Notes: generated by a model from the letters alone, not told the origin. DNA of 35,205 nt from a virus (IMGVR_UViG_2588253749_000005); one strand, 5' to 3'; positions 1,937 to 27,281 are shown, counted from the stretch's first letter. Translations and numbers: made by a program.

Positions 1937-3100
1937 TCACTCATCATCTTCGGTTTCGTACTCCACATCAGAAAGCCTTACCTCAAGCTCTAAGGACGTC
2001 GTGAAGCCGCTATTATTCAGAAAATGTGTCACCTTAGTGATTGTCCAGTCCTGCTCGTCTATGACACGCTTAAAGCCTGATACTTTGACCGGTGTTTCCG
2101 TGTAAATATCTGCCCGACCGGTAGCCAGGCTGATGGAGAACTCCGCTACACCCCGTTGCAGTTTATCCCACTTCGCCTGAGCGGCGCGCATGGCCTGCGC
2201 TTTCGTGGCATATACCGTGGTCAGGGCAAAAACGTTGTCAGCCTCACCGGCCATGTATTCACCTTCGCGCGCTTCCGGTACTTTTGGCGCTTTCTTCTGC
2301 GTGACTGGTTTCGCTTTCGGGTGCTCCAGTGCGCGCAGGTGTTTTTCTTTCTTTTTGCGTTTCAGTTTTACCTTCTGCTTTTGCGGCTTCGGGTCTTTGG
2401 TGTGAAGCCACTTTGCCGTTACGCCGGTATAGGCTCCACGGTCAGCAATCGCAAAATGGTGGCGGTCGCCGTCGCTGCGGGTTATGGTGACCTGCGGGAT
2501 TTTTTTACCGCTGGCCGTCACCCCCTGCCCCGCTTTGAGAAACAACAGTTTTCCCATTTTTACCGAGACCTCACCGCCGTTGCGTTCTGCAAGACGGGTC
2601 AGGAATTTCGCATCAGACTCCTGCGACTGGTCTATGTGCGGGATTTTAATTCCGGCCAGTGACGGAGCGACACTGGCTTCCAGCCTGTTACGGGAGGCTA
2701 TCGCCTCAACAATCGCACCGAGCGTGGTGTCATGCCAGGAGCCTTCCCGGCGGGAATTGAGCGTCCCGCGAAAATCTGCACTCCGGGCGCGGATGGTGAC
2801 CACATCCGGTGCGCCCCGGTGTTCAACCTCATCAACGGTAAATTTCCCTTTGCATACCAGGGCAAAACCTTTCCAGCCGATATACACCGTCAGGACAGCG
2901 CCACGAACCGGCAGCCCGACCTGCCCGTCGGCATCGTTCAGTTCAATATCAAGCTGGTCAGCCTCAAAGCCCCGGTTATCTGTCAGGGTCATGCTCATCA
3001 GACGGTCGCTGATATTGCCGGTAATATCCCTGCTGTCGAGCATCAGCATGTAATCCGGCGTCAGCGTACTGCCTGCATCAAATGTCAGCGCATCCAGCAT
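1937..3100 (-). CDS. D: Tail protein D
   Basis: 387 aa, ATG at 3100, recognised as P2 gpD; position between ogr and U. Confidence 0.9.
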   Translation of the reverse strand: MLDALTFDAGSTLTPDYMLMLDSRDITGNISDRLMSMTLTDNRGFEADQLDIELNDADGQVGLPVRGAVLTVYIGWKGFALVCKGKFTVDEVEHRGAPDVVTIRARSADFRGTLNSRREGSWHDTTLGAIVEAIASRNRLEASVAPSLAGIKIPHIDQSQESDAKFLTRLAERNGGEVSVKMGKLLFLKAGQGVTASGKKIPQVTITRSDGDRHHFAIADRGAYTGVTAKWLHTKDPKPQKQKVKLKRKKKEKHLRALEHPKAKPVTQKKAPKVPEAREGEYMAGEADNVFALTTVYATKAQAMRAAQAKWDKLQRGVAEFSISLATGRADIYTETPVKVSGFKRVIDEQDWTITKVTHFLNNSGFTTSLELEVRLSDVEYETEDDE

Positions 3101-3579
3101 TATCCCGCCCCCGTCATACCCGTGAATTTAGTCGCCATACTGCCAGCCTTACCGATGAGCGATTCCGCCTGTTTACCGATATCGCCATAAAGCGCGGCCA
3201 GTGATTCATCAACGCGGGTGAGCGACAGCGTAAAATCAATTTTCCGGGGTGTGCCGTCTGCAAAGAAAATACTCCCTGTTTCACTCACCTTGCTGATGAC
3301 ATACATGCCGTAAATCATGCCGGTACCATTCAGCAACGGCCACGCCCGGCCTTCATCTGCCATCAGTCTGAGCGTGGTCATCGTCAGCTTGCCGCCGGTC
3401 AGTTCGGGATAAAGCACGCCTGCAAGCGTAATGTTTTCCTCACCCACACCGAGAAACTGAAAGGCATCCCGTTTACCGATACAGGAATTTGACGGCCAGC
3501 GATAATCTGATTCACGCTGCATGGTCTGGTGTGGCAGCGTCTGGCGCATAAAAACAAACATACCTAACGCGAGCATCAT
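3100..3579 (-). CDS. U: Tail protein U
   Basis: 159 aa, ATG at 3579 preceded by GGAGGTGA RBS; recognised as P2 gpU; overlaps the D start. Confidence 0.9.
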   Translation of the reverse strand: MMLALGMFVFMRQTLPHQTMQRESDYRWPSNSCIGKRDAFQFLGVGEENITLAGVLYPELTGGKLTMTTLRLMADEGRAWPLLNGTGMIYGMYVISKVSETGSIFFADGTPRKIDFTLSLTRVDESLAALYGDIGKQAESLIGKAGSMATKFTGMTGAG

Positions 3580-3593
3580 TTTTCGTCACCTCC

Positions 3594-6041
3594 TTAACCG
3601 TCATGCATCATGCTGGCACGGGTGCGCGCACGTTTATCCCGCTCGTATTTTTCGAGCGCATCCTGTAACTGGCGGTCGAGCTGTGTCCCCTGCGCAGTAC
3701 CGCCCGTCAGGTTGATGTGATATTCGTTTTTACTCTGGTCCACATAAGAGCGGCCAGCCGGTGCCGTAACTGGCTGATAAGCCTGATAGCCAGCATAAGA
3801 GCTGGTCGCCGGAATATAACCACCGGTGCCATACGTGGCGGCATGAGTTCTGGCGGCAGTCTGGTCAAGCGTGCCTGACTCTTTGTTGATGACGCCGAGT
3901 TTTTCCAGTACCCAGTCAATACCGCCGCGCAGTTTGTTGAACGCATTAAGCGGCAGCATCAGCGCGTCAGCCAGTGCCTGCCCGAACATGACGCCCGTGT
4001 CACGGCAACGGTTCAGGGTGTCCTGGGTGGCTTTGACCGGGGCAATCAAGTTTTTAAACCACTGCCACGCGGCCTGTAACTTTTCGCCCAGCCAGTCAAA
4101 CACCGGCTTAAGTGGCGTGAACAGTTCCCCCACCGGCGCAAATGCCGCTTTCAGCCCTTCCACCACACCGCCAAAGAATGCGCTGACAGGCTCCCAGTAT
4201 TTACGGATAAGCAACGCCCCGGCGACAATGGCGGCCACCACGGCCACAACCGGCCAGCTAATCGCCCCGATGGCCGTCATAACAGCACTGCCAACCGTCG
4301 TGAAGACTGCCCCCATTGCGCCTGCTGCCGCGATGATGGCATTGATGCCAGTGATAACCGGCCAGGCTACAAGACCAATTGCACCGATGATGCCAGTAAG
4401 CGCCAGCGCGCCACCGGCAATGATGCCAATGGTTGACGCCAGTGATTTGTTTTTCTGGATCCAGCCGTCGAGTTTTAACACATACTTTGTGGCCGTCTGT
4501 GTGAGCTTACGCAGTGCGCCTTCCTGCTGGTCAAACAGGTCTGTCCCCACCGCCTCATAAGCGGACTGAAACTCCTTAAAGTCACCGCCGAGGTTGTCCT
4601 GCATGATATTTACCAGCTCGGCAGTCTTCCCGTCTGAGGCTTTAAACGCAGCGGTCAGTTTGTCCAGCTTTCCGGTTGAGGCGGCAGTCATCAGCACGGC
4701 GGCGGCTGAGCTGGCCTCCTCCCCGAAAATAGTTTTCATGTATTCAGCCTGCTGGGCAGTACCGAGCCGGTTTTTCTCAAAACTGGCCTGCATTTCTTTC
4801 AGAATGGTAAATACTGGCCGGGTGTTTCCCTTGCTGTCTGAGGTTTTCACGCCAAGCTCTTTGAGTGCATCCCATGCTTTTCCCGTTGGTGCCTGCAGGC
4901 GACTTAACACGGCACGGCTTCCCGTCCCCGCCATTGAGCCTGTAATTTTTGCATCATGCAGCGCCCCGACCATTGCGGCGGTTTCTTCAATGCTGACACC
5001 GGCATTTTTTGCCACAGGTGCGGCATAGGTCAGCGCATCGCTCATGCCGTCAAAATCGGCGGCGGTTTTGTTCATCGTCATGGAGAGAACATCCCCGATA
5101 TGAGCGACCTTATCGTTTGAAAGCTGAAAGGCGGATTTCATCCCCATCAGCAGGGCGGCGTTTTCTTCCATCGTGCGGCGGTTCGCCAGCGCCATGTTCA
5201 GCGTGACCGGCGTTGCCGCCTGAATGGCATCAACATCCCCACCGGCTTTCGCAATAATAATCTGCGCACCGGCTGCATCATCTGCCGAGGCGGCGGTATT
5301 GTCGCCGAGCTGGCGCGCCTGTTTGCGTAATGCGGCCATTTCGGCGGAGTCTTTTGCCACACCGAGCACAGCCTGCAATTCTGAGTTTTTCTGCGCAAAC
5401 TCATAACCGGGCATCAGCAGCTTAACACCGGCCATCGTTCCCGCAGCAGCAATCCCCACACCGGCAGCGCCCACTGAGGCCATATTTCCTGCCAGTTCCT
5501 TTCCGGCCTGATAACGCTGTTTTACTGCGTTAAGTTTTGCCTGTTGTGCACTGACACGCGCCAGTGCGTCGCGCTGACGGTTAAGCTGTGCGGTGGTTTC
5601 ACTGATACGGTTTTTCAGCCCCTGCTCATCATGTGCAAGATTGCGGGTATTAATTCCCACAGCGGCCAGTTCCCGCTGCTGGCGCTTAACGGAATCCGTC
5701 AGGCGGTTATATTTCGCCTGTAAGTCCTCCGCCGCACGCTTTGCGGATTCCAGCACTTTCGCCTGAGCACGGGTCGGACGTTCGGTGTTTTTAAACTGTG
5801 TGGCAAGGGCTTCGGCTTCCTGCCGAGCCTTTTCAAGTGCATGACCAGTCACGGCGAGCTGCGCACTGGTCTTGCGAAATCCCTCAATACGGGACGCCTG
5901 ACCGTTCAGCTCGCGCAGTGATTTTTGTGTTTCCCGGATATCCCCCGACAGCGACTTGCTCGCTGTACGGATGGATTTAAACGGGCGGGATGCCTGGTCA
6001 ACAGCCCTGAGCAATACCTGTAATTTTACATTGTTACTCAT
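3594..6041 (-). CDS. T: Tail tape measure protein T
   Basis: 815 aa, ATG at 6041; coiled-coil N-terminal half and Gly/Ala-rich hydrophobic central segment; P2 gpT position. Confidence 0.9.
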   Translation of the reverse strand: MSNNVKLQVLLRAVDQASRPFKSIRTASKSLSGDIRETQKSLRELNGQASRIEGFRKTSAQLAVTGHALEKARQEAEALATQFKNTERPTRAQAKVLESAKRAAEDLQAKYNRLTDSVKRQQRELAAVGINTRNLAHDEQGLKNRISETTAQLNRQRDALARVSAQQAKLNAVKQRYQAGKELAGNMASVGAAGVGIAAAGTMAGVKLLMPGYEFAQKNSELQAVLGVAKDSAEMAALRKQARQLGDNTAASADDAAGAQIIIAKAGGDVDAIQAATPVTLNMALANRRTMEENAALLMGMKSAFQLSNDKVAHIGDVLSMTMNKTAADFDGMSDALTYAAPVAKNAGVSIEETAAMVGALHDAKITGSMAGTGSRAVLSRLQAPTGKAWDALKELGVKTSDSKGNTRPVFTILKEMQASFEKNRLGTAQQAEYMKTIFGEEASSAAAVLMTAASTGKLDKLTAAFKASDGKTAELVNIMQDNLGGDFKEFQSAYEAVGTDLFDQQEGALRKLTQTATKYVLKLDGWIQKNKSLASTIGIIAGGALALTGIIGAIGLVAWPVITGINAIIAAAGAMGAVFTTVGSAVMTAIGAISWPVVAVVAAIVAGALLIRKYWEPVSAFFGGVVEGLKAAFAPVGELFTPLKPVFDWLGEKLQAAWQWFKNLIAPVKATQDTLNRCRDTGVMFGQALADALMLPLNAFNKLRGGIDWVLEKLGVINKESGTLDQTAARTHAATYGTGGYIPATSSYAGYQAYQPVTAPAGRSYVDQSKNEYHINLTGGTAQGTQLDRQLQDALEKYERDKRARTRASMMHDG

Positions 6042-6517: not shown

Positions 6518-7036
6518 TCACAGGCCGATATTGCGGCGGTGTTGCTCCAGCCGGTCGACGCCGTTCACCTTCTCAATCATGTTGATGGTGTCGATTTCGA
6601 CCAGCTCCTTACCGTCCATCGTCAGCCGGAAATAGGTGCAGACCACGGAGATTTTCGACTCGGTGTCTTCTCCCTGTTTGCCCTCGCCGGTGTCGATTTC
6701 TTTCTGACGTCCACGCATGACCACCTCGACGGCCACCGTTTCGCCGGTATCGTCGCGCTGGTAAGAGCCTGCAAAACGAATCGGTACGGCATCCACACCG
6801 GTTGCGGCGTAAAGCTCCCAGATAACCGAATCCGGGAAGCCACCGAGCGACCACTCCATTGACAGCGCATCGTCATCAAGGCCGAGGTCTACCGGTGCGC
6901 TGCCGTTCATCCCCGCACCGCGATAGTTTTCGAGCTTACGGGTCAGTTTTGGCAGCGTGACGGACTTCGCGACGCCCTGATAGCTGTAGCCGTTCAGAAA
7001 GACGTTCATTAACTTGAGTTTGCGCGGCATTGCCAT
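6518..7036 (-). CDS. FII: Tail tube protein FII
   Basis: 172 aa, ATG at 7036; recognised as P2 gpFII. Confidence 0.9.
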   Translation of the reverse strand: MAMPRKLKLMNVFLNGYSYQGVAKSVTLPKLTRKLENYRGAGMNGSAPVDLGLDDDALSMEWSLGGFPDSVIWELYAATGVDAVPIRFAGSYQRDDTGETVAVEVVMRGRQKEIDTGEGKQGEDTESKISVVCTYFRLTMDGKELVEIDTINMIEKVNGVDRLEQHRRNIGL

Positions 7037-7048
7037 CGGTCAGGCTCC

Positions 7049-8239
7049 TTAATTGCTGTTAACCGAGGTGACCAGATTTGCCAGGTATTTATCGGTAATA
7101 CGCTGGCGCAGGGTCAGGTTTTCGAGAGGAGGCACCGGTGTATAGTCGTAGTCGATATACAGTTTTCCGGCCTTGAGGGTTTCCGCATCGTTGGATTCTT
7201 CGCTGAACCAGCAGGTCGCATCCACGATATAGCCGTTTGTTTTCAGCTCACGGAATTTGGCATTGATGCCGTCAACGATGTCGCGAATCAGCGTTGCAGT
7301 GATGGGCTTGTCCACCGCCCACATGTGCGCCTCAGCCATCGTGTCGGCCAGCACCTGCGCGGTGCGGGTGTAGTTTTCAAAGAGGAACAGCGGGTCATCA
7401 GAGCAGGTACGGTTACCCCAGAAGCGGAAACCGTCACGGCGAATCAGCGTTGTGACACCTGACTCGTTCAACAGGTCAGCATCGGTGCCGGACTCCTGCA
7501 AATCCCAGAATACAGAGGCACTGATGCCGGTAACACCGTTTACCCCGACGTTGGACAGCGTTTTATGCCAGCCCTGCTCCTGGTCGATTTTGGCACGCAG
7601 ACCCAGCGCACGGGCGGTGGCATACGCGGTGGCGGTGGTACTGGCGACCGTATCCCATGCGAGGAAATCCGGCCAGATGACCATCAGCTCTCGCTGGCTG
7701 AAATTCTGGCGGTAGGCTTTCACCTCGGAAATGGTTTTACAGCCCCATGCGCTGATATACCCGAAAGCGCGCAGCTTCTGACAGACGGATGCCAGTGCAA
7801 CAGCCACCTCTTTGGTGTCCAGTCCCGGCACGCCGAGAATACGCGGTTTAACACCGGTTACCGACTCTGCCGCCAGCAGGGCTTTCAGTCCGGTATACTG
7901 ACCGTTTTCGTCAGTGGTGCCGATGATATTGGAAACGGTCTGCGCGAGTTTCGTTTCCTCGTCGTCGCCGGTGCCGTCTTCCACGCGCACAACAACAGTC
8001 ACTGGTTTTGACTGGTCGGCGATGGCCTGCAACGATGCCGCCAGCGTGCCTTTTTTACCGGCCTTTGCAATTGCGGTCTGCACATTGGTAATCAGCACAG
8101 GTTTATTGAGGGGGAAGGTTTCCGCATCCGCATCGCTGGCCGTGCAGACCATGCCGACAATGGCCGTGGATACAGTGGAAATGACGCGGGTGCCCTCGTT
8201 AATCTCCAGCACCTGCACGCCGTGATGATAGTCACTCAT
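7049..8239 (-). CDS. FI: Tail sheath protein FI
   Basis: 396 aa, ATG at 8239; recognised as P2 gpFI. Confidence 0.92.
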   Translation of the reverse strand: MSDYHHGVQVLEINEGTRVISTVSTAIVGMVCTASDADAETFPLNKPVLITNVQTAIAKAGKKGTLAASLQAIADQSKPVTVVVRVEDGTGDDEETKLAQTVSNIIGTTDENGQYTGLKALLAAESVTGVKPRILGVPGLDTKEVAVALASVCQKLRAFGYISAWGCKTISEVKAYRQNFSQRELMVIWPDFLAWDTVASTTATAYATARALGLRAKIDQEQGWHKTLSNVGVNGVTGISASVFWDLQESGTDADLLNESGVTTLIRRDGFRFWGNRTCSDDPLFLFENYTRTAQVLADTMAEAHMWAVDKPITATLIRDIVDGINAKFRELKTNGYIVDATCWFSEESNDAETLKAGKLYIDYDYTPVPPLENLTLRQRITDKYLANLVTSVNSN

Positions 8240-8337
8240 CCGTTTAACTCCGTGGTTAATGGGTGCAATTATTTTCTGTTGTGCAGAGCATGAGACGCTA
8301 TTTGACCTGGCTGGTCAGTGGATGAAACAACAGATAA

Positions 8338-8358
8338 AGAAAAGGCGGACAATCCGCC
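8338..8358 (-). terminator. Intrinsic terminator at the 3' side of the FI-G cargo island
   Basis: Minus strand reads GGCGG-attgt-CCGCC followed by TTTTTT; lies between the cargo gene ending at 8725 and the FI upstream region. Confidence 0.5.
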
Positions 8359-8724
8359 CGCCTGTCATGATTTGTACTCACTTATTTCCCGACTGACAAT
8401 TTACATAGCCAAAACGCTATCAAATCTGACAGTCTGCTTTGAGCGATCTGCGGACATTACTAACAGCATTCTGTATGAATAACGGGGGGTAGATCATTCC
8501 TGTCCTCACGACGACGCCTATCTATCATACAGTCGTTCTTTGGATCAAGACGCGTTCTGAAATGGTGTTTTTATGTATGTGCTGAATTCTGGGGCATAGA
8601 GTAAACCTTTCAAATTGCCAGAAACAGAAATGTGCGATTTAGTTGTCAAGTAATACCGGATATTTCAGCGATTCATCAAGAAATCATCGACCAGGCTGCT
8701 GTACATTCTCATCGGACGATTTTA

Positions 8725-9591
8725 CTATTCCTCAAGATCGCAGTTACTGCAATGACCTTCCATCCGGAATGCACCACATTCACAAGGCTCCATAGGAACA
8801 AAACCATCCATCTTGCTGTATTCACATTTATACCAGAGACAGACACCGGCCCTTTGTTCCGGTAAATAAATTACGGATGGGACACTACATTCAGGACATT
8901 CCTGAAAATCCCAAGTTTGCAGATTATTCAGGCTGAAACCACAACAGATACAGTGAGTCCGTGCCGGAAAGCTTTCACCTTGGTAAAGGATAAAATGTGA
9001 AAAACTCTCACAAACGGGACAAAGTGCAAGGGTGTATTCCTGGTTAACAGTTATATCAAGGAATTGTTGCTCAAGAGCGATGATGTCTTGACGTAAATCA
9101 GAGTTCCATGAATTTTCGGTCTCATCTGACTGAATTATGACGAATGCGGGACGAAAAATTTGTTGGTACAGTTCACTCAGTTGCATTGACAGTTCTTGCG
9201 GACGAACCTCAAGGGCAAAATGCTGAAGGTTATTACGCAACTGACCCACCGTTTTCATCATTTGTAATGCAGATTCAGAAAATTCGGCTGGGTAATATGT
9301 CTTTAACAGCTTACAAAGCTGGCTGACGTTGACAGATTTACACTGGTGTAATTCTGACTCGGTTGGATGCGCCGGATCCACACATTTTTCTTGAAGCGAT
9401 GCTGGATTAAAAATCGCTCCAGACCCATTGCGCGAAACTACGGCCTTCAATAATAGCTCAGCGGCCTGAAAGAGGTTAAGCAGGCACTGTTTGTAGTCAC
9501 GTCGATCATGCCCTTCTAGCGCTTTGTTAAAGTAGTCCAGCCCGGTTTTCACTGAATCCAACGCATTTTCTAGTAAGTTAAAACGGACCAT
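8725..9591 (-). CDS. Uncharacterised cargo protein: helical N-terminal domain with HEPN-like R-x4-H motif (RNNLQH) plus Cys-rich zinc-ribbon-like C-terminus
   Basis: Track ORF 8725..9666 starts at GTG; preferred start is the ATG at 9591 preceded by a G-rich RBS (about 288 aa); alternative ATG at 9615; C-terminal 100 aa has CPVC, CICC, CPEC, C-x4-C, CEC and CSNC motifs; AT-rich relative to phage genes. Confidence 0.6.
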   Translation of the reverse strand: MVRFNLLENALDSVKTGLDYFNKALEGHDRRDYKQCLLNLFQAAELLLKAVVSRNGSGAIFNPASLQEKCVDPAHPTESELHQCKSVNVSQLCKLLKTYYPAEFSESALQMMKTVGQLRNNLQHFALEVRPQELSMQLSELYQQIFRPAFVIIQSDETENSWNSDLRQDIIALEQQFLDITVNQEYTLALCPVCESFSHFILYQGESFPARTHCICCGFSLNNLQTWDFQECPECSVPSVIYLPEQRAGVCLWYKCEYSKMDGFVPMEPCECGAFRMEGHCSNCDLEE

Positions 9592-9756
9592 ATTAAAGCC
9601 CCCCCGAATAGGCATCGTCGTTATGCCAGCGCTTCCGCCAGTTACACAAATAGTGATTGTACCCACGAATATTGGGAACCTATTTTAGCATGTTTAACTT
9701 TAGTAGTACTGACACAACATTCATGGAGCGGACTGATTGACTTTTGGGGGCGCGTA

Positions 9757-9785
9757 TTTACAAACTCACTACAATGCTGTATAAT
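9757..9785 (+). promoter_or_regulatory. Candidate sigma70 promoter (TTTACA-17 nt-TATAAT) facing the small hydrophobic ORF
   Basis: -35 tttaca at 9757..9762, 17-nt spacer, -10 tataat at 9780..9785; plus strand, opposite to the flanking cargo genes. Confidence 0.45.
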
Positions 9786-9923
9786 TCGTGAAGAGTGAAT
9801 TTAGCTAGTGCATCCATAGGTTCAATTCCTATGACTACAATTCTCATCACAGCTCTCCCAATAGTCGCATTTATCCGTTACCTCAACGTGTTACTTAACA
9901 ATTACGTCAGTAAGGAGAAGCCT

Positions 9924-10106
9924 ATGAGTAAATTATTCTGCCATGAAGTACTATATGTATCTTGTTTCATTGAAACTTTTTGGGCTGGGGTGATAAGTGT
10001 AGTAGCGGGTCTGATGACGGGCGGTGTCCAAATTATTTTGGCACTAGCTAAATCTTCTCAATTTTTGTTTTTTTTCAAAGCACTTACACCCATAAATATT
10101 ATTTAA
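9924..10106 (+). CDS. Small hydrophobic protein (60 aa, predicted membrane-spanning)
   Basis: ATG at 9924 preceded by AAGGAG with a 6-nt spacer; hydrophobic core FWAGVISVVAGLMTGGVQIILALA; same frame is open from 9795 with an alternative ATG at 9831 (91 aa) lacking an RBS. Confidence 0.45.
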   Translation: MSKLFCHEVLYVSCFIETFWAGVISVVAGLMTGGVQIILALAKSSQFLFFFKALTPINII

Positions 10107-10371
10107 ATCAATAAAATAAGTCACTCTACGCATATTTTCCTTATCATGGTCTTTCGTGTTTTTGTACTCAACATGATCGTTTCCCCTTTCTTTAATACAC
10201 AGTGTGATTAGCTACGTCTTCTATTGGAGCGAAGTGGACGGGTTAATTGAGCTGAATGTCAGCTATGAGCGAGGAACGGACTTCAAGAAAGTACCTAACT
10301 GCGTATCGATTGCAAAATATGACAGTCTGACGGTGTTAAGGGCCGTGAGTGCAGCCCTTAAGAAAAAAGTA

Positions 10372-11307
10372 TTAATAATATATCCTGGCTTGCTCGCTCG
10401 TTTCGGTTAAGTTTATTTCATGGTAGTGATTATTTATAAAGTCACAAAAAGTACTAATTTTATCTTTGAGATTACTCATGCTATGCGTGATTTCGTCGTA
10501 TAAATCGCTTTCCTCCTGATTTCGACAGTGGTCACCGGGATTTATAAAACTATAAGTATCATTTGGTGCTGAATAATTATATGGAGCTTTTCTAAACAAG
10601 ATAATTAGATCACGCCAAGCCGTTGCAAAATCAATTGTAACATTCTTTAAAGCTGTATCATTCAGTTGAAAAACAGGTGAGTTTAAAATGTTCAAAATAT
10701 TATCGTATTCTTCAATAATTAATGAATGAATGTATTTTGCGCCCCACTGCAAATGGTCTATTGTTGAATAAAAATCAATATAATTCAACAATCTCGACAA
10801 ATTTGAGATATCTCTCTTGCGCAAAAATTCTTCCCTCGTCGGTTGGTGTCGTTCGAACATTTGCGGGTAGTACATTTTGAGTACAGCTGGGTCTTTGCTT
10901 AAATCAAAGCTAATATCCTCCCAGAAAACCACATCGACAGGAAACAGGCCTTTTAATTGTCTGGCATCATTGAGTGTTCTTACATAGCGCTGAATGCTAA
11001 CATCCCTGGGCGCTGTCGTAGCGATGTAAAGAACCGTAATTTTTGGGCGAAATTTTTCAGCCTTGAGTAATTCATCATCGATTGTCGCCGTACTGATTCC
11101 TGATACTGTATTTTTACACTGAATTCCAACGAAACGCCCAAGAGAGTCATCACCATATACATCAACTCCATCCTGCCGCTGCCCTGACCGTCCATGTCTG
11201 TTCAGATTAGGATTGGACCATCGCAGTTGGAATGAACTTTTGCACATATCCTCAAATTCGTCCCAAGATTTAGGGGGGGGTAACAACATTGAATTATATG
11301 TAACCAC
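10372..11307 (-). CDS. Uncharacterised cargo protein with N-terminal Mrr-type restriction-endonuclease-like (PD-(D/E)xK fold) domain
   Basis: 311-aa ORF; GTG at 11307 with AAAGGA 7 nt upstream, alternative ATG at 11289; N-terminal WDEFEDMC...GRSGQRQDGVDVYG...GRFVGIQCK matches the Mrr-catalytic-domain pattern (D-x-D ... Q-x-K); C-terminal 170 aa unrecognised; strongly AT-rich. Confidence 0.6.
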   Translation of the reverse strand: MVTYNSMLLPPPKSWDEFEDMCKSSFQLRWSNPNLNRHGRSGQRQDGVDVYGDDSLGRFVGIQCKNTVSGISTATIDDELLKAEKFRPKITVLYIATTAPRDVSIQRYVRTLNDARQLKGLFPVDVVFWEDISFDLSKDPAVLKMYYPQMFERHQPTREEFLRKRDISNLSRLLNYIDFYSTIDHLQWGAKYIHSLIIEEYDNILNILNSPVFQLNDTALKNVTIDFATAWRDLIILFRKAPYNYSAPNDTYSFINPGDHCRNQEESDLYDEITHSMSNLKDKISTFCDFINNHYHEINLTETSEQARIYY

Positions 11308-11769
11308 TTACTAATCCTTTATCTAAGATTCTTCATTTTCGTAATCACTATCATAATCATGCTTGATGTGCAATATCTTATTTGCCATGGTTATATGACG
11401 TGAACATAATATATACTGTAAGTATAAGCAGAATTTATTAATGGTGTTCGCCACTCAACGTAATGGTTTCACACTCTAAGGTTCTTTTTTAATAAATCAA
11501 AACATTATGGACAGTGAATCATATCGGAAATGGTTCCTTTTAAATTGAATAACGGCCCATAGTACACAGGTGTATGTGTTAATCGATTTTTCAGACGTTT
11601 TTTTTCGCCTAACATGAGATTTCGTTCGATTGAGCACCAGACCCAATTACCACTATTTAATGATTTAGGTCGAGTAGTAGTAACGTCAGCTCTTGGCACA
11701 TAGCGGACTGTCAGATTAGGCTTTACTCTGTGCTATAGATATGTAAGCTCACACCAGAGATCATACAAC

Positions 11770-12297
11770 TTATTGCGGCATTTCCGGCCATTCGGGATTT
11801 GCAGGATCCACACGACTGACCAGAACGCTGTAGCGTTCCCATGCTTCCAGTCGGCTGCGTTCCTCATCCGTCGCCATATTCAGCCTGACAGCGCGTTCCA
11901 GCGGCAAAATCACGGATTCAGCTTCGGAAAGTAAAGCTGCCTTTTGTGATTCGGCCTGTTGTTGCTGTTCGTCTGCCGTATAAATCCGCTTAATCACGGC
12001 ACCATCCTTAAACATCCATTTACCTGAGTCATCAGCACGTCGGTTGGAGGTAATATCAGGAACCTCGACAACGCTGAAACCTTCAGGGTTAAGCGTTGAA
12101 GCATCTCTGGTGATGCCGACAATTATATTATTCTCGTCGTAAACAATCTTTATCGTGTCTTCCTGAAAATTACTTACTTCCTCATACCAGTTTTTTCCCT
12201 CTTCGGACCATAACCAGATAACATCAAAATTTTTTGTCAGTTGATATTGGGCAACAGTTTTTGGATTACCCGCAGTAATATTTTTTAAATGCTGCAT
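11770..12297 (-). CDS. G: Tail fiber assembly chaperone G
   Basis: 175 aa, ATG at 12297; recognised as P2 gpG-type; directly downstream of H. Confidence 0.85.
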
Positions 12298-12300
12298 AAA

Positions 12301-14346
12301 TTACACCTGTGCGACGTTATACCATGTGCCATTGATGTATTTTTGTATTGGCCTGAATACTGCGGGGTCATCACCATCGACTTCACCGACAATACCAAGC
12401 CCGGTAATTACGTGCCCTGCTTTCTCATACATCACCCCTTTCTGCATGGTCTGGACAACACGTGTGCCAAGTCTGATATCTCTCACATAGCGGGAATCAA
12501 AGTTACCGTAATCCGAGGGATTAACACGCCCCGTAATATTTATGGTCTTATTACTTTGAATGCTTCCGGAAACAAAGCGCATAACATGGACGTTATTAGC
12601 ATAAACATCCAGATTACCATCGCCATTTTGTTTAAATCCGGTGTCGTTATCACCAAGAACAATAGAGTTCCCACCCAACGCGTTATTCGTGCCAAGTGCC
12701 AGCCCGCCATCAATCCTGGCACCATTACCAACAGACACAACTCCTGTTCTTAAGTTGATGCCGAATGGCCTTAATGGCCCAATATCTCCATTTTCACCCT
12801 CATTTTCTCGTGTAGGAATGATATACAGGTTTTCTTCAGAACGGCGAAAAATAGCCCCAAAAGATGAATTAAATATCCTCAGTGCATTGACTGTAGATAT
12901 TTTTACTTCACTGCTGAAAAGGGCTTTAACAAGAACATACAGAGCATCCCATTTAAGATTCATCAGGTCTTTTGTTGTGGTGCTCTGGCGACTTCTCCAT
13001 TTGAAATATTCATTGCCGTTGTCACCTGTTTCAAACCACATATATGAATCAGTATCGCTGTCGGCATCATTTTTAAATCCAATCTTTGCCCAGTCAGTAT
13101 TTCGAATCCAGGCAAGGATTGAGTCGTTTTCAAAAGTAAGCCCACCGGACAAGGTATCGCCATTCTTTTGCACCGCGTTCCTGGCCCTGTTTACCGTTTC
13201 CTGCAAACCGAGGTATTCGATAACGGCAGTAACGGTCGCTTTGGCAAGAATATCCCGTCCGACTTTTGTCAGGGTTGCCAGGCTGGCAACATCATTCCCC
13301 GTAAAATACGGAAACCTGTCTGCCGCAGTAGCAAGCCCCGCCAGCGCCGTCAGGGTAGCATCTTTCGGTTGCTTACCCGCAAGCGCATTAGTCATGGTGG
13401 TAGCAAAATTCGGGTCATTGCCCAGCGCCGCCGCCAGCTCGTTCAGCGTATTCAGTGCGTCAGGCGACGAGTCTACAAGGGCGGCAATCGCGGCCATAAC
13501 GAAAGCCGTGTTTGCGATCTGAGTATTATTCGTTCCCTGTCGCGCAGTTGGCGTCGTTGGCGTTCCGGTCAGTGCAGGGCTGTTTAATGGCGCTTTTTTG
13601 TTCGTTTCATCCATTACCGTCTTAACGGCTTTTGGTGTTGCGGCGAGCGTTTCAGACGTGCTGTTGGTGGCACTACTGAGCTGGACAAGGCCTTTTCGCG
13701 CTGTGGTGGCGTCCTGTGCGGTATATTTCCCGTTAGCCAGGTCATACGCGGCCTTTACCGCTTTCGGCGTTGCGGCCAGTGTTTCAGACGTGCTGTTGGT
13801 CGCACTGCTTAACTGAGTAAAACCTTTTGTGGTCAGCGAGGCGTCCGGGTGACGTCGTGACTGTTCGTGCTCTGCAATTTTGTCATCAACGTAATCCTGC
13901 GTCGCCATCACCGTTGTGGTGTCAATGGTCAGCTCCACTGAGGCCACACTGCTGACGATGATGACCATGCGGCAGGTCTGCGAACGCCCTGAGCCTTCGG
14001 CAAGGGCAGGTTTATAACTTTCGGCCATGTTCGCCACGGCAATTAACGTTCCCGCATCATCGTACAGGCCAAGCTCCCGCATCCAGAAACCGCCCACCTC
14101 CGGCGGAATAATCAGCTCTGCGATAATATAATTACTGTTTCGTTTGTCCTGGCTGATTTTATTCAGCGCATGTCGCCAGACTTCATGGATAAGCCCGGTC
14201 TGTCCGGCATCCGGGACAGGCAATTTACCACCGCCATCCCCGACGGCCATCGTGGTAATGTTGACCTTCCGCCCTCCCGGTGCGGTTGCCGCTGCCAGCT
14301 TTGCTGCACCAACAGTGGTGATAACGGTTTTGAATTTTGTGCTCAT
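12301..14346 (-). CDS. H: Tail fiber protein H
   Basis: 681 aa, ATG at 14346; conserved P2 gpH N-terminus; internal duplicated LSSATNSTSETLAATPKAVK motif; divergent C-terminal receptor-binding part. Confidence 0.9.
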   Translation of the reverse strand: MSTKFKTVITTVGAAKLAAATAPGGRKVNITTMAVGDGGGKLPVPDAGQTGLIHEVWRHALNKISQDKRNSNYIIAELIIPPEVGGFWMRELGLYDDAGTLIAVANMAESYKPALAEGSGRSQTCRMVIIVSSVASVELTIDTTTVMATQDYVDDKIAEHEQSRRHPDASLTTKGFTQLSSATNSTSETLAATPKAVKAAYDLANGKYTAQDATTARKGLVQLSSATNSTSETLAATPKAVKTVMDETNKKAPLNSPALTGTPTTPTARQGTNNTQIANTAFVMAAIAALVDSSPDALNTLNELAAALGNDPNFATTMTNALAGKQPKDATLTALAGLATAADRFPYFTGNDVASLATLTKVGRDILAKATVTAVIEYLGLQETVNRARNAVQKNGDTLSGGLTFENDSILAWIRNTDWAKIGFKNDADSDTDSYMWFETGDNGNEYFKWRSRQSTTTKDLMNLKWDALYVLVKALFSSEVKISTVNALRIFNSSFGAIFRRSEENLYIIPTRENEGENGDIGPLRPFGINLRTGVVSVGNGARIDGGLALGTNNALGGNSIVLGDNDTGFKQNGDGNLDVYANNVHVMRFVSGSIQSNKTINITGRVNPSDYGNFDSRYVRDIRLGTRVVQTMQKGVMYEKAGHVITGLGIVGEVDGDDPAVFRPIQKYINGTWYNVAQV
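13617..13823. repeat. Imperfect direct repeat inside the tail fiber gene
   Basis: Two copies of about 60-70 nt at roughly 13617..13690 and 13748..13823, centred on gtttcagacgtgctgttggt, about 80 percent identical by eye. Confidence 0.6.
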
Positions 14347-15792: not shown

Positions 15793-16140
15793 TCAACTCA
15801 CAGGGATGGTTAACGAAAGTGGCTGGCCGGTGTCGTTGTGCTGACCGGTTAACGTGACCGTCATTCGCCCGTCAAAGCTGCGCGCCGTGGTGACGGATGA
15901 CAGGGTGACACGGGGTTCCCATTTCAGCACCGCCATGTAACAGGCGACCTTAATCTGCAACTCAAGCGCCGGGGTCTGCGGCTGGTCAATCATTGACGCC
16001 AGCAACGAGCCGTAATCACGACGCATCACCCGTGAGCCGACCGGTGTGCGCAGGATATCGCCGATACTCTGGCTGATATGCTCAAGGTCAGTGACAGTCA
16101 GGCCATCACTGTGATTCATTCCGAGATAACGCGCTGTCAT
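15793..16140 (-). CDS. W: Baseplate wedge protein W
   Basis: 115 aa, ATG at 16140; P2 gpW. Confidence 0.88.
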   Translation of the reverse strand: MTARYLGMNHSDGLTVTDLEHISQSIGDILRTPVGSRVMRRDYGSLLASMIDQPQTPALELQIKVACYMAVLKWEPRVTLSSVTTARSFDGRMTVTLTGQHNDTGQPLSLTIPVS

Positions 16141-16772
16141 AGAGGACTCCCGGTTGTGCCGCCGCTGTCGCCGGGGTGTTTATGGGTATGCAGTACCTTA
16201 CCGTTTGATGAGAGTTCACCGCCGGTGTGTTCAATGTTGCCGCGCATCGTCCCGCCCTTCTGTACTTCCAGCGTGCCGGTAATCAGCCTGTTGGTGCAGA
16301 CCACCTCCGGCGTGTCCAGGGTGATGCGGGTTGATGCTTTCACCATGACCACCGGCACCGTGGCAGTAACAGAATCAGAAGCCGTCACGCTGGCCGTTTT
16401 AACTCCGCTTACCGTGAGCGCGCTGGTTTCAGGTTCATACTCAATCACCGCCCCGTCAGGGAAACGGATATGCAGGGCATCCGCCGACGCAGACGGCGCG
16501 GGGTTATCGCCGGAATAAATCCCCGGCAGAACGAACGCCGTGTCGAGTTCACCACCCACGGCCAGAATCAGCACCTGTTCCCCCACGGAAGGTGCCCACC
16601 ATGTGCGCGAACGCCCGGCGCGATGGGTCAGCCACTGAAGCCAGTCGGTGCACATGCCGCCGGTCTGCACACGGCAGCGACCGGCATTAAGGTCGGTTTC
16701 GACGATAATGCCGGTGCGGATCATGTTGCGCAGTGCGCGCGCGAGTTCCTGAATATTTGCGAGAGTGTTCAT
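16137..16772 (-). CDS. V: Baseplate spike/hub protein V
   Basis: 211 aa from the ATG at 16772 (MNTLANIQELARALRNMIRTG...); the track ORF starts 6 codons earlier at TTG. Confidence 0.9.
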   Translation of the reverse strand: MNTLANIQELARALRNMIRTGIIVETDLNAGRCRVQTGGMCTDWLQWLTHRAGRSRTWWAPSVGEQVLILAVGGELDTAFVLPGIYSGDNPAPSASADALHIRFPDGAVIEYEPETSALTVSGVKTASVTASDSVTATVPVVMVKASTRITLDTPEVVCTNRLITGTLEVQKGGTMRGNIEHTGGELSSNGKVLHTHKHPGDSGGTTGSPL

Positions 16773-16855
16773 GCGTGTGAGATTGCACAATATATAAAAG
16801 TTATGCTATCTGGATTCATTTGTAGAACGACCATACAACATTCGAGGAGAGCGTA

Positions 16856-17641
16856 ATGTTCAGTGATAATGTGATTAATGCGTGGTGGTTTATCTCTTTG
16901 TATCTATTTTTATTAATAGCATTAACATTTGTTACCTTTGGTAAAAGTAATCTTATGAGGTTTATTGCACATCATTTCAATCTTGAGTATTCAGACAGAA
17001 AGTTAAAAATGCTCGACAAAAAATGGCGCGACATTCAACTATTTAAAGTAATTAACGGAATCAATGTATCAGGCATCGAAGATGTGAGAATGATACAGCA
17101 GGGGCTGATTGATGGAAAACTAAAAACATCGTATTTTTTCCTTACTCGCATCTGGGGTGACATAACAAAACCACCACACATAATTAAAACAATAATTGTA
17201 ATTCTGGCCAGTATTTTTTACATTCTCCTCGCATGTTACATACACAACGAACAATCCGTTATAGTAAGGGATGCCATAGGCATACCATATAAAAACATGA
17301 TGTACTATGTTTATAGTGACAAAGTTCTTTTATCCTTCAAAAATAAAGCAGTTGAATTTAATAAAACTTATAGCCTTGCCGATTGCAAGAGACTGCAAAA
17401 CGTATTTATAAAAGACACACTTCCTGAGATCGCCTGCAATAAGCTCTTACAGCTAAACGAGGAGGACTCCGAATGGTTAAGCCAGGAGATTAAAGATAAT
17501 AACAGTCACAAAAAAGCATTATTAATACTATCCCTCGTCTATTTCACTTCAGGTCTGGTTATATTCCTGTCATATACAAAATTCTTTTACGCCAATAAGA
17601 AGGTTTTAGAATACAAAGCATCAAATAAAAATCACTCATAA
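16856..17641 (+). CDS. Uncharacterised three-transmembrane-segment protein in the S-V (P2 orf30) cargo slot
   Basis: 261 aa; ATG at 16856 with GAGGAG RBS 6 nt upstream; hydrophobic segments near the N-terminus, middle and C-terminus; very AT-rich; opposite strand to the surrounding tail genes. Confidence 0.7.
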   Translation: MFSDNVINAWWFISLYLFLLIALTFVTFGKSNLMRFIAHHFNLEYSDRKLKMLDKKWRDIQLFKVINGINVSGIEDVRMIQQGLIDGKLKTSYFFLTRIWGDITKPPHIIKTIIVILASIFYILLACYIHNEQSVIVRDAIGIPYKNMMYYVYSDKVLLSFKNKAVEFNKTYSLADCKRLQNVFIKDTLPEIACNKLLQLNEEDSEWLSQEIKDNNSHKKALLILSLVYFTSGLVIFLSYTKFFYANKKVLEYKASNKNHS

Positions 17642-17647
17642 ACCTCT

Positions 17648-17712: not shown

Positions 17713-18165
17713 CTAACGCTCAAGGTGAGCCAGGATAATCTCTTCAATCATCTGCACATCCTCACCGGTAAAACCGAGCAGAGGACGCGCCGGATAATCA
17801 ATTTTCTTACCGTCTTTTCGGTTTTCTTCCGACAGACCGAACTGATGCACACTGGCAATTTTCGGCGACTTCCCGCCGTAAAACTCCATTGATGCCTGTT
17901 CCGGGCTGGCGCGGATATGCAAAAAACGACTGGTAATAAGTTTCGCAAACATTTTTCGCTTAACGCGACCGGTCTTTTTTCTGACGCTCTGCTGCTGGCG
18001 TGGCGCGTAGGGTGTGCCGTCCGGGGCTTTCTGTGCCATCACCCGACGCTGCTGACTCTGCCGCAGACGTTTCGCCAGTTCGGCACTCAGTCGCCGACGC
18101 CCTGACGGTGACAGCGATTCAATCAGCCCGGTCAGCCGGTCTTCAAAACGCTTAAACTCATTCAT
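17713..18165 (-). CDS. S: Tail completion protein S
   Basis: 150 aa, ATG at 18165; P2 gpS. Confidence 0.9.
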   Translation of the reverse strand: MNEFKRFEDRLTGLIESLSPSGRRRLSAELAKRLRQSQQRRVMAQKAPDGTPYAPRQQQSVRKKTGRVKRKMFAKLITSRFLHIRASPEQASMEFYGGKSPKIASVHQFGLSEENRKDGKKIDYPARPLLGFTGEDVQMIEEIILAHLER

Positions 18166-24080: not shown

Positions 24081-25853
24081 ATGACCATCACCACAGACAC
24101 CACTCTTTTACACGACCCGCGTCGTCAGGCGGCGCTGCTGTACTGGCAGGGATTTTCCGTGCCGCAGATTGCCGCCATGTTGCAGATGAAACGCCCGACG
24201 GTGCAGAGCTGGAAACAGCGCGACGGCTGGGACAGCGTTGCCCCCATCAGCCGTGTCGAAATGAGTCTGGAAGCGCGGCTGACCCAGCTCATCATCAAAC
24301 CGCAGAAAACCGGCGGTGATTTCAAGGAAATTGACCTGCTGGGACGCCAGATTGAACGACTGGCACGGGTAAACCGCTACAGCCAGACCGGCAACGAGGC
24401 AGACCTTAATCCGAACGTCGCTAACCGCAACAAAGGCGGGCGGCGCAAACCGAAAAAGAATTTTTTCAGTGACGAGGCCATCGAAAAGCTGGAGCAGATT
24501 TTCTTTGAGCAGTCTTTCGATTATCAGTTGCACTGGTATCGCGCCGGGCTTGAGCACCGCATCCGCGATATCCTGAAATCCCGCCAGATTGGCGCGACGT
24601 TTTATTTTTCCCGCGAGGCGCTGCTGCGCGCCCTGAAAACCGGTCATAACCAGATTTTTCTGTCGGCCAGTAAAACGCAGGCGTATGTGTTCCGTGAATA
24701 CATCATCGCCTTTGCCCGTCTGGTTGATGTTGACCTGACCGGTGACCCGATTGTCCTGGGCAATAACGGCGCAAAACTGATTTTTCTCGGCACCAACTCC
24801 AACACCGCGCAGAGCCATAACGGCGACCTGTACGTCGACGAGATTTTCTGGATCCCGAATTTTCAGGTGCTGCGTAAGGTGGCATCAGGTATGGCCTCAC
24901 AGAGTCACCTGCGATCGACCTATTTCTCCACCCCGTCCACGCTGGCGCACGACGCCTACCCGTTCTGGTCGGGTGAACTGTTCAACTGGGGACGCGCCAG
25001 CGCCGCCGAACGCGTGGAAATCGACGTCAGTCATAACGCCCTTGCCGGTGGGCTTCTCTGTGCGGACGGCCAGTGGCGGCAGATTGTCACCATTGAGGAC
25101 GCCCTGAAAGGCGGCTGCACGCTGTTCGACATTGAGCAGCTCAAACGCGAAAACAGCGCCGACGATTTTAAAAACCTGTTCATGTGTGAATTTGTTGACG
25201 ACAAGGCGTCGGTGTTCCCGTTCGAGGAGCTGCAACGCTGTATGGTCGACACGCTGGAAGAATGGGAAGACTATGCGCCGTTTGCCGCCAATCCGTTCGG
25301 CTCCCGCCCGGTATGGATTGGTTACGACCCGTCACACCGTGGCGACAGCGCCGGATGCGTGGTGCTGGCACCGCCGGTGGTGGCCGGTGGCAAATTCAGA
25401 ATACTTGAGCGTCACCAGTGGAAAGGCATGGACTTTGCCACCCAGGCTGAATCCATCCGCAAACTCACCGAAAAATACAACGTCGAATACATCGGTATTG
25501 ATGCCACCGGCCTCGGTGTCGGCGTGTTCCAGCTCGTGCGCTCGTTCTATCCCGCCGCGCGCGACATCCGCTACACGCCGGAAATGAAAACCGCAATGGT
25601 GCTCAAGGCAAAAGACGTCATCCGCCGTGGCTGTCTGGAATATGACGTCAGCGCCACCGACATCACCAGCTCGTTTATGGCTATCCGCAAGACCATGACC
25701 AGCAGCGGACGCAGCGCCACCTATGAGGCCAGCCGCAGCGAGGAAGCCAGCCACGCCGACCTCGCCTGGGCGACCATGCACGCCCTGTTAAATGAGCCAC
25801 TCACCGCCGGTATCAGCACCCCGCTGACATCCACCATTCTGGAGTTTTACTGA
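24081..25853 (+). CDS. P: Terminase large (ATPase) subunit P
   Basis: 590 aa from the ATG at 24081 with GAGG RBS (MTITTDTTLLHDPRRQAALLYWQG...); P2 gpP. Confidence 0.92.
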   Translation: MTITTDTTLLHDPRRQAALLYWQGFSVPQIAAMLQMKRPTVQSWKQRDGWDSVAPISRVEMSLEARLTQLIIKPQKTGGDFKEIDLLGRQIERLARVNRYSQTGNEADLNPNVANRNKGGRRKPKKNFFSDEAIEKLEQIFFEQSFDYQLHWYRAGLEHRIRDILKSRQIGATFYFSREALLRALKTGHNQIFLSASKTQAYVFREYIIAFARLVDVDLTGDPIVLGNNGAKLIFLGTNSNTAQSHNGDLYVDEIFWIPNFQVLRKVASGMASQSHLRSTYFSTPSTLAHDAYPFWSGELFNWGRASAAERVEIDVSHNALAGGLLCADGQWRQIVTIEDALKGGCTLFDIEQLKRENSADDFKNLFMCEFVDDKASVFPFEELQRCMVDTLEEWEDYAPFAANPFGSRPVWIGYDPSHRGDSAGCVVLAPPVVAGGKFRILERHQWKGMDFATQAESIRKLTEKYNVEYIGIDATGLGVGVFQLVRSFYPAARDIRYTPEMKTAMVLKAKDVIRRGCLEYDVSATDITSSFMAIRKTMTSSGRSATYEASRSEEASHADLAWATMHALLNEPLTAGISTPLTSTILEFY

Positions 25854-26887
25854 TGAGCAAGAAAAAAGGGAAAACACCGCAACCTGCGGCAAAAAAAATG
25901 ACCGCCAGCGCCCCGAAAATGGAGGCATTCACCTTTGGTGAGCCGGTGCCGGTACTCGACCGCCGTGACATTCTGGATTACGTCGAGTGCATCAGTAACG
26001 GCAGATGGTATGAGCCGCCGGTCAGCTTTACCGGTCTGGCGAAAAGCCTGCGTGCTGCCGTGCATCACAGCTCGCCGATTTACGTCAAACGCAATATTCT
26101 GGCCTCGACATTTATCCCGCATCCGTGGCTTTCGCAACAGGATTTCAGCCGCTTTGTGCTGGATTTTCTGGTGTTCGGTAATGCGTTTCTGGAAAAGCGT
26201 TACAGCACCACCGGTAAGGTCATCAGACTGGAAACCTCACCGGCAAAATATACCCGCCGTGGCGTGGAAGAGGATGTTTACTGGTGGGTGCCGTCCTTCA
26301 ACGAGCCGACAGCCTTCGCGCCCGGCTCCGTGTTTCACCTGCTGGAGCCGGATATTAATCAGGAGCTGTACGGCCTGCCGGAATATCTCAGCGCCCTTAA
26401 CTCTGCCTGGCTGAATGAGTCGGCCACGTTGTTCCGCCGCAAGTATTACGAAAATGGCGCACATGCCGGATACATCATGTACGTCACCGATGCCGTGCAG
26501 GATCGCAACGATATCGAAATGCTTCGCGAAAACATGGTCAAGTCGAAAGGCCGCAACAACTTTAAAAACCTGTTTCTCTATGCCCCACAGGGGAAAGCCG
26601 ACGGCATTAAAATTATCCCCCTCAGTGAAGTGGCGACGAAGGACGATTTTTTTAATATCAAAAAAGCCAGCGCCGCTGACCTGCTGGACGCGCACCGCAT
26701 CCCCTTTCAGTTGATGGGTGGCAAGCCGGAGAACGTCGGGTCGCTGGGTGATATTGAGAAAGTGGCAAAGGTCTTTGTCCGCAATGAGCTTATCCCGTTA
26801 CAGGACAGGATCCGCGAGATAAACGGCTGGCTCGGTCAGGAGGTCATCCGCTTTAAAAACTACTCACTGGACACTGACAACGACTGA
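25853..26887 (+). CDS. Q: Portal protein Q
   Basis: 344 aa, ATG at 25853 overlapping the P stop; P2 gpQ. Confidence 0.92.
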   Translation: MSKKKGKTPQPAAKKMTASAPKMEAFTFGEPVPVLDRRDILDYVECISNGRWYEPPVSFTGLAKSLRAAVHHSSPIYVKRNILASTFIPHPWLSQQDFSRFVLDFLVFGNAFLEKRYSTTGKVIRLETSPAKYTRRGVEEDVYWWVPSFNEPTAFAPGSVFHLLEPDINQELYGLPEYLSALNSAWLNESATLFRRKYYENGAHAGYIMYVTDAVQDRNDIEMLRENMVKSKGRNNFKNLFLYAPQGKADGIKIIPLSEVATKDDFFNIKKASAADLLDAHRIPFQLMGGKPENVGSLGDIEKVAKVFVRNELIPLQDRIREINGWLGQEVIRFKNYSLDTDND

Positions 26888-27075: not shown

Positions 27076-27281
27076 CGCCCGCTTCATGGGGCGGTTTTAA
27101 TGCAGTTGCATGACCACTCAACTAGCGCGCCAGTCCTGATGTCGCCAGGCAGTTATTGTTCTCTGACTTGCGTGCGCTTCGATGCAGAGTAATGCACTTC
27201 CTGAATTGCTCGCATTCGCATCGTTATCATGATAGAAAACAGGTAGTTATTTGTGCGCAACTTAAGAAGAAATCACTAATT

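Follow-up and report, generated by a model that had tools for sequence, protein, structure and literature searches.

We analyzed a 35,205-nucleotide stretch of viral DNA (IMGVR_UViG_2588253749_000005; here, the window), the whole of which is found, identical, in the chromosome of Escherichia coli B7A, and which represents a P2-like prophage whose late genes are read from the minus strand. Our subject was the cargo island lying between the tail sheath gene FI and the tail-fiber assembly gene G, a position known in P2 as the Z/fun slot. An earlier note, made from the sequence of the window, had described AT-rich cargo in this slot, and the base composition agreed with it: the GC content was 0.36 to 0.44 at positions 8501 to 11500, compared with 0.54 to 0.60 in the flanking late genes. 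The late strand of the FI-G interval was found to carry two large open reading frames (ORFs), 8725..9666 (313 aa in its longest form) and 10372..11307 (311 aa), which we call gene 1 and gene 2, respectively, and which are 706 to 780 bp apart. Two late-strand genes of about 300 aa had been noted before, and both are present, but gene 1 starts at Met26 of the longest ORF, a start on which the homologues, a PHROG match, and the RefSeq annotation agree, and encodes 288 aa rather than 313.

Direct BLAST comparison with the Z-region records of P2-EC58 and P2-EC67 showed that homology to the P2 backbone extends to 8446 and restarts at 11685 to 11694, and the foreign cargo therefore occupies 8447..11684 (about 3.2 kb). 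The span first proposed for the island, 8240 to 11769, does enclose cargo situated between FI and G, but its two ends, 8240..8446 and 11685..11769, are conserved P2 backbone, which bears a terminator and inverted repeats; 8210..8446 is 94 to 95% identical to the Z-region flanks of both P2-EC58 and P2-EC67. A consensus scan placed the terminator-like hairpin, with a 9-bp stem containing six GC pairs and followed by a T run, very near 8338..8358, where a terminator separating the island from FI had been claimed. The description of the slot as a documented antiphage hotspot also held, as Vassallo et al. (2022) reported Z/fun to be a second defense-enriched locus of P2, and a 2026 survey of P2/P4 hotspots cites this locus too.

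Gene 1 is predicted to encode an RNase composed of a HEPN domain and three zinc ribbons. Its AlphaFold2 (AF2) model had a mean predicted local distance difference test score (pLDDT) of 87.8 and a predicted template modeling score of 0.84, and the best Foldseek matches of this model in the PDB were HEPN domains, namely, 2hsb (AF_0298), HepT (7bxo, 7ae6, and 5yep), and Csm6. In an alignment of 26 family members, the residues R119, N120, Q123, and H124 of the catalytic-type Rx4H motif, which reads R119-N-N-L-Q-H124 in gene 1, were invariant. The same alignment revealed ten invariant and two nearly invariant cysteines, arranged in three predicted Cys4 sites (C191/194/214/217, C232/235/251/256, and C270/272/281/284). 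When the family profile was compared with the PDB sequences, the sole match was the TFIIB zinc ribbon 1pft, at a marginal E value of 0.0012.

The relationship of gene 1 to cataloged families was clearer at the level of the family than at that of the single protein. Its own matches to DUF3644/HEPN models were subthreshold (E values of 0.0086 in Pfam and 0.0016 in PADLOC), while 15 of the 26 family members matched DUF3644, with a best E value of 2e-22. The PADLOC models matched by gene 1 were PDC-S64 (E value of approximately 3e-21), PDC-S19 (5e-6), and HEC-08 (6e-6 to 7e-6); PDC-S64 was matched by all 26 members and HEC-08 by 22 of them, with a best HEC-08 E value of 2e-23. The alignment of gene 1 with HEC-08 ran from residue 14 to 285 against profile positions 20 to 300 of 358, with no single stretch passing alone. 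These matches support membership of gene 1 in the superfamily, and gene 1 is probably a distant member of the known and tested HEC-08 kind.

HEC-08 (Hma-embedded candidate 08) is a single-gene phage defense system in which mutation of the Rx4-6H histidine abolishes defense (Payne et al., bioRxiv 10.1101/2024.01.29.577857). It has the same HEPN plus zinc-finger architecture as gene 1 but was found embedded in another defense system, whereas gene 1 lies in a P2 prophage slot. The PDC families are candidates that were predicted from their embedding in other defense systems (10.1101/2024.01.29.577857); among them, PDC-S64 is the best sequence match of gene 1. Another single protein that joins a zinc ribbon to a divergent HEPN RNase is RAZR, or PD-T7-4 (Zhang et al., Nature 2026, PMC13017515), which is nontoxic until phage ring proteins assemble the active RNase, whereupon RNA is cleaved nonspecifically and the infection is aborted (PMC13017515). 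RAZR has one N-terminal Cys4 zinc ribbon followed by a C-terminal DUF4145 HEPN domain, whereas gene 1 has the reverse order and three zinc ribbons; moreover, the zinc-finger domain of RAZR is more variable than its HEPN domain, while the zinc ribbons of gene 1 are not hypervariable. Gene 1 had no PADLOC match to PD-T7-4 at an E value of 1 or below and no match to DUF4145. Given the opposite domain order and the lack of a detectable sequence relation, we regard RAZR as a mechanistic analogue of gene 1 only.

A search for a partner or antitoxin conserved with gene 1 gave none: the upstream neighbors of its homologues, of 89 and 196 aa in Serratia and of 180 aa in Raoultella, are mutually unrelated and leave no remnant in the window, and neither ToxI-like tandem repeats nor any Rfam family was detected. 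In Serratia marcescens, the two small genes (7018..7867) overlap each other, share the strand of the gene 1 homologue, and immediately precede it. They are unconserved in other genera and may be an accessory pair specific to this lineage.

Gene 2 encodes a protein of two domains, with a mean pLDDT of 90.4 in its AF2 model. The N-terminal half has a predicted PD-(D/E)xK fold with the D...(Q/E)xK pattern that marks the Mrr family, and its closest structural matches include AspBHI, MspJI, and the Mrr-like nuclease of LlaBIII. We found 171 homologues, and an alignment of 36 sequences showed E19, D49, Q63, and K65 to be invariant in the pattern GVD...GIQCK. No model in Pfam, NCBIfam, or PADLOC was matched by gene 2, whose sole match was phrog_8991 (function unassigned), and its family profile matched none of the PDB sequences. 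Unlike Mrr, MspJI, AspBHI, and the Mrr-like nuclease of Avs4, gene 2 lacks an Mrr_N winged helix, an SRA-like DNA recognition domain (both by Pfam), and a STAND/TPR sensor, and its nuclease is N-terminal, on an unrelated helical module, whereas Mrr, MspJI, and AspBHI have the reverse order. The gene 2-type nuclease half is widespread and sometimes sits on other tails. It heads a 1,055-aa TPR protein encoded on a plasmid of the haloarchaeon Halomontanus rarus (2340..5507) and a 1,040-aa protein encoded on a Klebsiella IncFIA plasmid (3474..6596), adjoining genes annotated as "restriction endonuclease" and TIGR02391; these two proteins may belong to larger sensor-nuclease systems.

The C-terminal half of gene 2 led to a much larger group of proteins. 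A profile of residues 154 to 311 searched against 1.84 billion representative proteins gave 554 matches at an E value of ≤1e-3 and 266 at ≤1e-10, and the module was C-terminal in almost all of the matches listed. We scanned 147 proteins with Pfam (146 of the matches listed and gene 2 itself) and found a CAP12/Pycsar-type TIR domain (PF10137) in 76 of them; the other heads were a protein kinase, a CHAT protease, DUF4062, PNP_UDP_1 (PNP/UDP phosphorylase family), EAD11, and TIR_2. An hhalign comparison of the gene 2 module with that of a TIR fusion gave a probability of 99.5% and an E value of 4e-23 over 157 columns. PADLOC models matched only the heads of the fusions (CBASS/Pycsar TIR, PD-T4-6-type kinase, and CHAT), never the shared tail. 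The TIR fusion that we examined adjoins an integrase gene, and the kinase fusion adjoins a DUF2971 gene and an AHH nuclease gene. Within the gene 2 family, divergence is faster in the tail than in the nuclease domain (mean identity of 47% versus 62%).

The combination of one module with interchangeable effectors usually marks a domain for immune sensing or activation, and we therefore read the module as the putative sensing/activation part of these proteins. Effectors of Avs/STAND, CBASS, and Pycsar systems likewise combine a common sensing domain with alternative heads. In contrast to them, the module is helical, about 155 residues long, and without an NTPase, SAVED, CARF, or cyclic nucleotide monophosphate (cNMP)-binding signature, the proteins bearing the gene 2 module are small (about 310 to 370 aa), and no cyclase gene adjoined the gene 2 loci or the two fusion loci examined. 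The sequence data make gene 2 a plausible uncataloged combination of a known nuclease head with an effector-swapping tail. We further propose, tentatively and with slightly less than even confidence, that the module defines an undescribed and widespread family of single-protein immune sensors (at least 554 clusters at 50% identity) driving interchangeable effectors, of which gene 2 would be a nuclease-armed, phage-borne member in E. coli.

We surveyed 5,426 complete E. coli genomes for the two genes. The complete island was present in 13 of these, while 15 further genomes had only the part comprising gene 1 and about 690 bp upstream of it, without gene 2. E. coli CP66-6, whose island has no gene 2, matches this gene 1 module with 98.9% identity over 1,854 bp. 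In the genomes with gene 1 only, the module lies in a decayed P2 slot next to genes for an S1 peptidase, DUF4236, and DUF2971, and the far end of the slot holds a remnant of G and a degenerate G-side repeat. The CP66-6 slot (NZ_CP053723.1, 3759565 to 3771350) has the G remnant on one side and IS3, integrase pseudogenes, and a reverse transcriptase gene on the other; strain D7 has a similar decayed slot, in which an ISVsa5 insertion splits gene 1.

In other genera, each gene was again found in surroundings of its own. Homologues of gene 2 adjoin kwaA and kwaB of the Kiwa system in Serratia ureilytica, lie at a mobile-element edge in Vibrio, stand alone in S. marcescens, flanked by LacI-type and LysR-type regulators, and adjoin the Rep gene of a 93-kb plasmid in Leclercia; no gene 1 homologue was near them in the Serratia, Vibrio, and Leclercia loci examined. 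Conversely, the gene 1 homologue in Serratia has a type I-F CRISPR locus and a gene for an SMC/AAA ATPase in its vicinity, and that in Raoultella lies among insertion sequence (IS) elements, adjoining SymE, with no gene 2 homologue near either. We found no co-occurrence of the two genes outside this slot. Since other genomes carry either one alone, the independence of gene 1 and gene 2 as single-gene modules is well supported by these comparisons, in line with the suggestion in the earlier note that two genes some 700 bp apart may be two independent single-gene systems. In a tblastn search, isolated phage genomes had neither gene, the single match being a distant and partial one to gene 2. A 102-bp stretch inside the right end of the gene 1 module (10171..10272) matches, at 97 to 98% identity, unannotated sequence from IS-rich parts of E. 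coli plasmids of roughly 160 to 207 kb and of one chromosome; in plasmid A of strain M3, it lies between IS3 and IS66 remnants.

The boundary between the two modules is marked by a repeat. The cargo is bounded by inverted-repeat arms of 40 nucleotides each, which are 78% complementary. GenBank AJ512683 and AJ512685 (Nilsson et al.) already annotate inverted repeats on the left and the right of the Z-region, with the label "right inverted repeat" on the counterpart of the FI-side arm. The island has the same FI-G position, conserved flanking inverted repeats, and foreign low-GC composition as the P2 Z/fun cargo described previously (AJ512683, AJ512685; Vassallo et al. 2022). The core of the repeat, AATMTGACAGTCYG, occurs three times in the window versus 0.02 times expected by chance. 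The left edge of the gene 1 module lies within the core, and the third, internal copy starts 33 nucleotides past the other end of this module (10283). Five other slot variants have the core exactly twice, inverted and at the same backbone positions, and none of them has the internal copy, so that a stack of two units with a third core copy was seen in this island only. The internal copy fits recombination at the repeat between two prophages with different cargo, and the island probably originated in this way. We also considered the core as a general signal for cassette junctions and rejected this, as slot versions with two or three other genes hold the flanking copies only, and the CP66-6 island has no core copy between its cargo genes. 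The positions of all features are collected in Table 1.

Table 1. Features of the cargo island and the adjoining late genes, in order of position in the window
Feature	Position	Strand	Basis or remark
Tape measure gene	ends 6041		
FII	6518..7036		
FI (tail sheath)	7049..8239	-	
Intrinsic-terminator-like hairpin, between cargo and FI, in conserved P2 backbone	8343..8363	-	Consensus scan
Inverted-repeat arm, FI side	8423..8462	+	Core AATCTGACAGTCTG at 8423-8436
Portable gene 1 module (gene 1 and about 690 bp upstream)	8433..10283	-	Match to CP66-6 island
Gene 1, 288 aa, WP_042815569, predicted HEPN RNase with three zinc ribbons	8725..9591	-	Homologues, RefSeq
Gene 1 C-terminal zinc-ribbon region, residues 183-288	8728..9045	-	Cysteine conservation
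Gene 1 HEPN domain, residues 1-182	9046..9591	-	26-sequence alignment, Foldseek
Gene 1 Rx4H motif, R119-N120-x-x-Q123-H124	9220-9237	-	Alignment
Hydrophobic ORF, 60 aa, WP_021530427 (RefSeq)	9924..10106, long form from 9795	+	ORF call
68-aa ORF, phrog_8904 match	10204..10410	+	ORF call
Internal third repeat-core copy (AATATGACAGTCTG)	10316..10329	+	At junction of the two cargo modules
Gene 2, 311 aa, WP_001297780, two domains	10372..11307	-	ORF, AF2, alignment
Gene 2 C-terminal helical module, residues 154-311, unannotated	10375..10848	-	Profile search
Gene 2 N-terminal PD-(D/E)xK (Mrr/MspJI-like) domain, residues 1-153	10849..11307	-	
Gene 2 D49...Q63-x-K65	11113-11163	-	Invariant in alignment
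Inverted-repeat arm, G side	11678..11717	-	Core AATCTGACAGTCCG at 11704-11717, minus strand
G (tail-fiber assembly)	11770..12297	-	
H (tail fiber)	12301..14346	-	

Taken together, we favor the interpretation that the island stacks two single-gene cassettes in the Z/fun slot, unrelated to each other and separately mobile, each of which probably protects the lysogen from other phages. We infer the defense role of both genes from homology, domain content, and context. The HEPN RNase of gene 1 would be inactive until infection, when a phage-derived cue, acting via the zinc-ribbon region or oligomerization, would assemble the composite HEPN active site; the activated protein would cleave RNA, translation would stop, and the infection would be aborted. 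The C-terminal module of gene 2 would be the sensing or assembly part that switches on the attached effector, and the nuclease domains would be brought together and cut DNA. Recombination at the repeat core probably joined the two formerly separate cargo units. The prediction in the earlier note that both proteins target nucleic acids is consistent with the HEPN and PD-(D/E)xK domains, both those of predicted nucleases. It had named no known defense system for either protein and took the island as the best candidate in the window for an undescribed defense module; after the PADLOC search, this stands for gene 2, which matches no system, but not for gene 1, a relative of HEC-08. Because gene 1 matches PDC-S64 and HEC-08, candidacy as an undescribed defense gene is held by gene 2 only.

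Several observations weigh against assigning both genes to defense in this way. The HEC-08 match of gene 1 itself is weak, at about 23 bits, and we therefore place gene 1 on a distant branch; its PDC-S64 match covers profile positions 1 to 131 of 339, the HEPN part only, and PDC-S64 is itself only a candidate. The zinc-ribbon region is no more variable than the HEPN domain (62% versus 57% identity), which does not favor a rapidly evolving specificity domain. As for gene 2, the PADLOC defense models match it nowhere, and its N-terminal half is below the Pfam cutoffs, with 11.9 bits for Mrr_cat (PF04471; cutoff, 21) and 12.1 bits for Mrr_cat_2 (cutoff, 22), the best relative reaching 20.9 bits against the Mrr_cat cutoff of 21. 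Some of its homologues are flanked by ordinary regulatory genes, without defense genes close by. A structure search with the C-terminal module yielded only generic helical bundles, so that the sensor role proposed for it comes from the domain architecture.

Gene 2 might instead be a solitary type IV, i.e., modification-dependent, restriction endonuclease whose C-terminal domain reads modified phage DNA and confers direct immunity. Two of its nearest structures, AspBHI and MspJI, are modification dependent, its catalytic D...QxK pattern is of the Mrr/MspJI type, no methyltransferase directly adjoined any of the gene 2 homologue loci examined, and some sources label the homologues "restriction endonuclease type IV Mrr domain-containing." On the other hand, the subthreshold Mrr_cat score, the missing SRA-like or winged-helix reader, and the reversed domain order all speak against such an enzyme, and the same module occurs on TIR, kinase, and CHAT effectors, which do not act on DNA. 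A general activation module fits this last observation better than a reader of DNA modification, and we consider the restriction enzyme unlikely. The notion that the two genes form one system, as sensor and effector or as an RNase and a DNase acting jointly, appears extremely improbable. Although they are neighbors on one strand, the consensus scan predicted no strong terminator in the gap, and all 13 complete E. coli genomes with gene 2 have gene 1, the 15 genomes with gene 1 alone have it next to different cargo, homologues of gene 2 in four other genera lack gene 1 nearby and vice versa, the spacing of 780 bp contains the repeat-core copy marking the junction, and HEC-08 acts as a single gene.

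It is also conceivable, but decidedly unlikely in our estimation, that one gene, or both, belongs to selfish addiction or toxin modules or to the lysogenic conversion genes and stabilizes the prophage or alters the host while giving no protection from phages. Cargo of this locus was first annotated as "putative lysogenic conversion protein" (AJ512683, AJ512685), HEPN and PD-(D/E)xK domains are common as toxins, and part of the P2 hotspot cargo is nondefensive, with partition systems and a cytolethal distending toxin reported at the other P2 hotspot by Rousset et al. Nevertheless, an antitoxin candidate is conserved beside neither gene and ToxI-like repeats are lacking, the relative HEC-08 gives phage defense, and the effector swapping by the gene 2 module is typical of immune proteins. 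The earlier note had further drawn attention to a small opposite-strand ORF with its own promoter, which can be identified with the hydrophobic 60-aa ORF and an 11/12 sigma-70-like match at 9757..9785, ahead of the long form (9795..10106). As this ORF travels with gene 1 in the 1.85-kb module and is annotated in RefSeq, it could be a real third component, such as a membrane effector, a regulator, or an antitoxin of gene 1. However, it is kept only within the near-identical gene 1 module, its C terminus differs even in the 99%-identical module of CP66-6, it is absent beside the Serratia and Raoultella homologues of gene 1, and it matched no family in the Pfam, PADLOC, NCBIfam, and PHROG scans. 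Sigma-70-like sites are not enriched in the island (8 observed versus 10.5 expected in shuffled sequence), so the promoter is a consensus match only, and a third component seems very unlikely. The 68-aa ORF overlaps the 3′ end of gene 2 and straddles the module junction at 10283, so that CP66-6 has no more than its first 28 codons. This ORF was probably called spuriously, and the two opposite-strand ORFs are probably nonfunctional.

Two further cargo islands were observed in the same prophage. A low-GC island between the portal gene (25853..26887) and the replication gene A (29313..31631), the classic old/tin hotspot of P2, encodes a 504-aa AbiP2 reverse transcriptase (27156..28670, plus strand; PADLOC AbiP2 match with an E value of 2e-152), and the prophage thus carries a known defense system in its other hotspot, a context that agrees with a defense role for the Z/fun cargo. 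A third low-GC island (GC content of 0.36 to 0.44 at 17001 to 18000) lies between the baseplate gene V (16137..16790) and the tail completion gene S (17713..18165). It contains an opposite-strand ORF of 261 aa (16856..17641, plus strand), preceded by 16470..16856 (plus strand), with no PADLOC match and only a subthreshold match to DUF6535; this ORF is another uncharacterized cargo gene.

The literature was examined for prior reports of the two proteins. Their accessions were absent from the DefensePredictor supplements, and the signature motif words of both families were absent from its table of tested proteins (DS-1 to DS-45), a comparison that does not extend to remote homology. DS-40 has the same length as gene 2 (936 bp) but encodes an unrelated transmembrane DUF6680 protein, and we rejected it as a coincidence of length. 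A full-text search returned nothing for either accession or for PDC-S64, and we found no experimental work on gene 2 or its C-terminal module.

With gene 1, the known range of the HEC-08-type HEPN-zinc-ribbon RNases would come to include a P2 prophage hotspot in enterotoxigenic E. coli, and gene 1 would be, beside RAZR, a second case, in reversed order, of zinc-ribbon control of a HEPN RNase. The island as a whole provides a concrete example of cargo stacking in the Z/fun slot, probably by way of the flanking repeats. Of the two genes, gene 2 is the more useful lead, as it offers a small and easily cloned entry to a module that is found on at least six kinds of immune effectors and has neither a name nor a model in the defense databases. 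Identifying what this module senses would annotate hundreds of protein families together.

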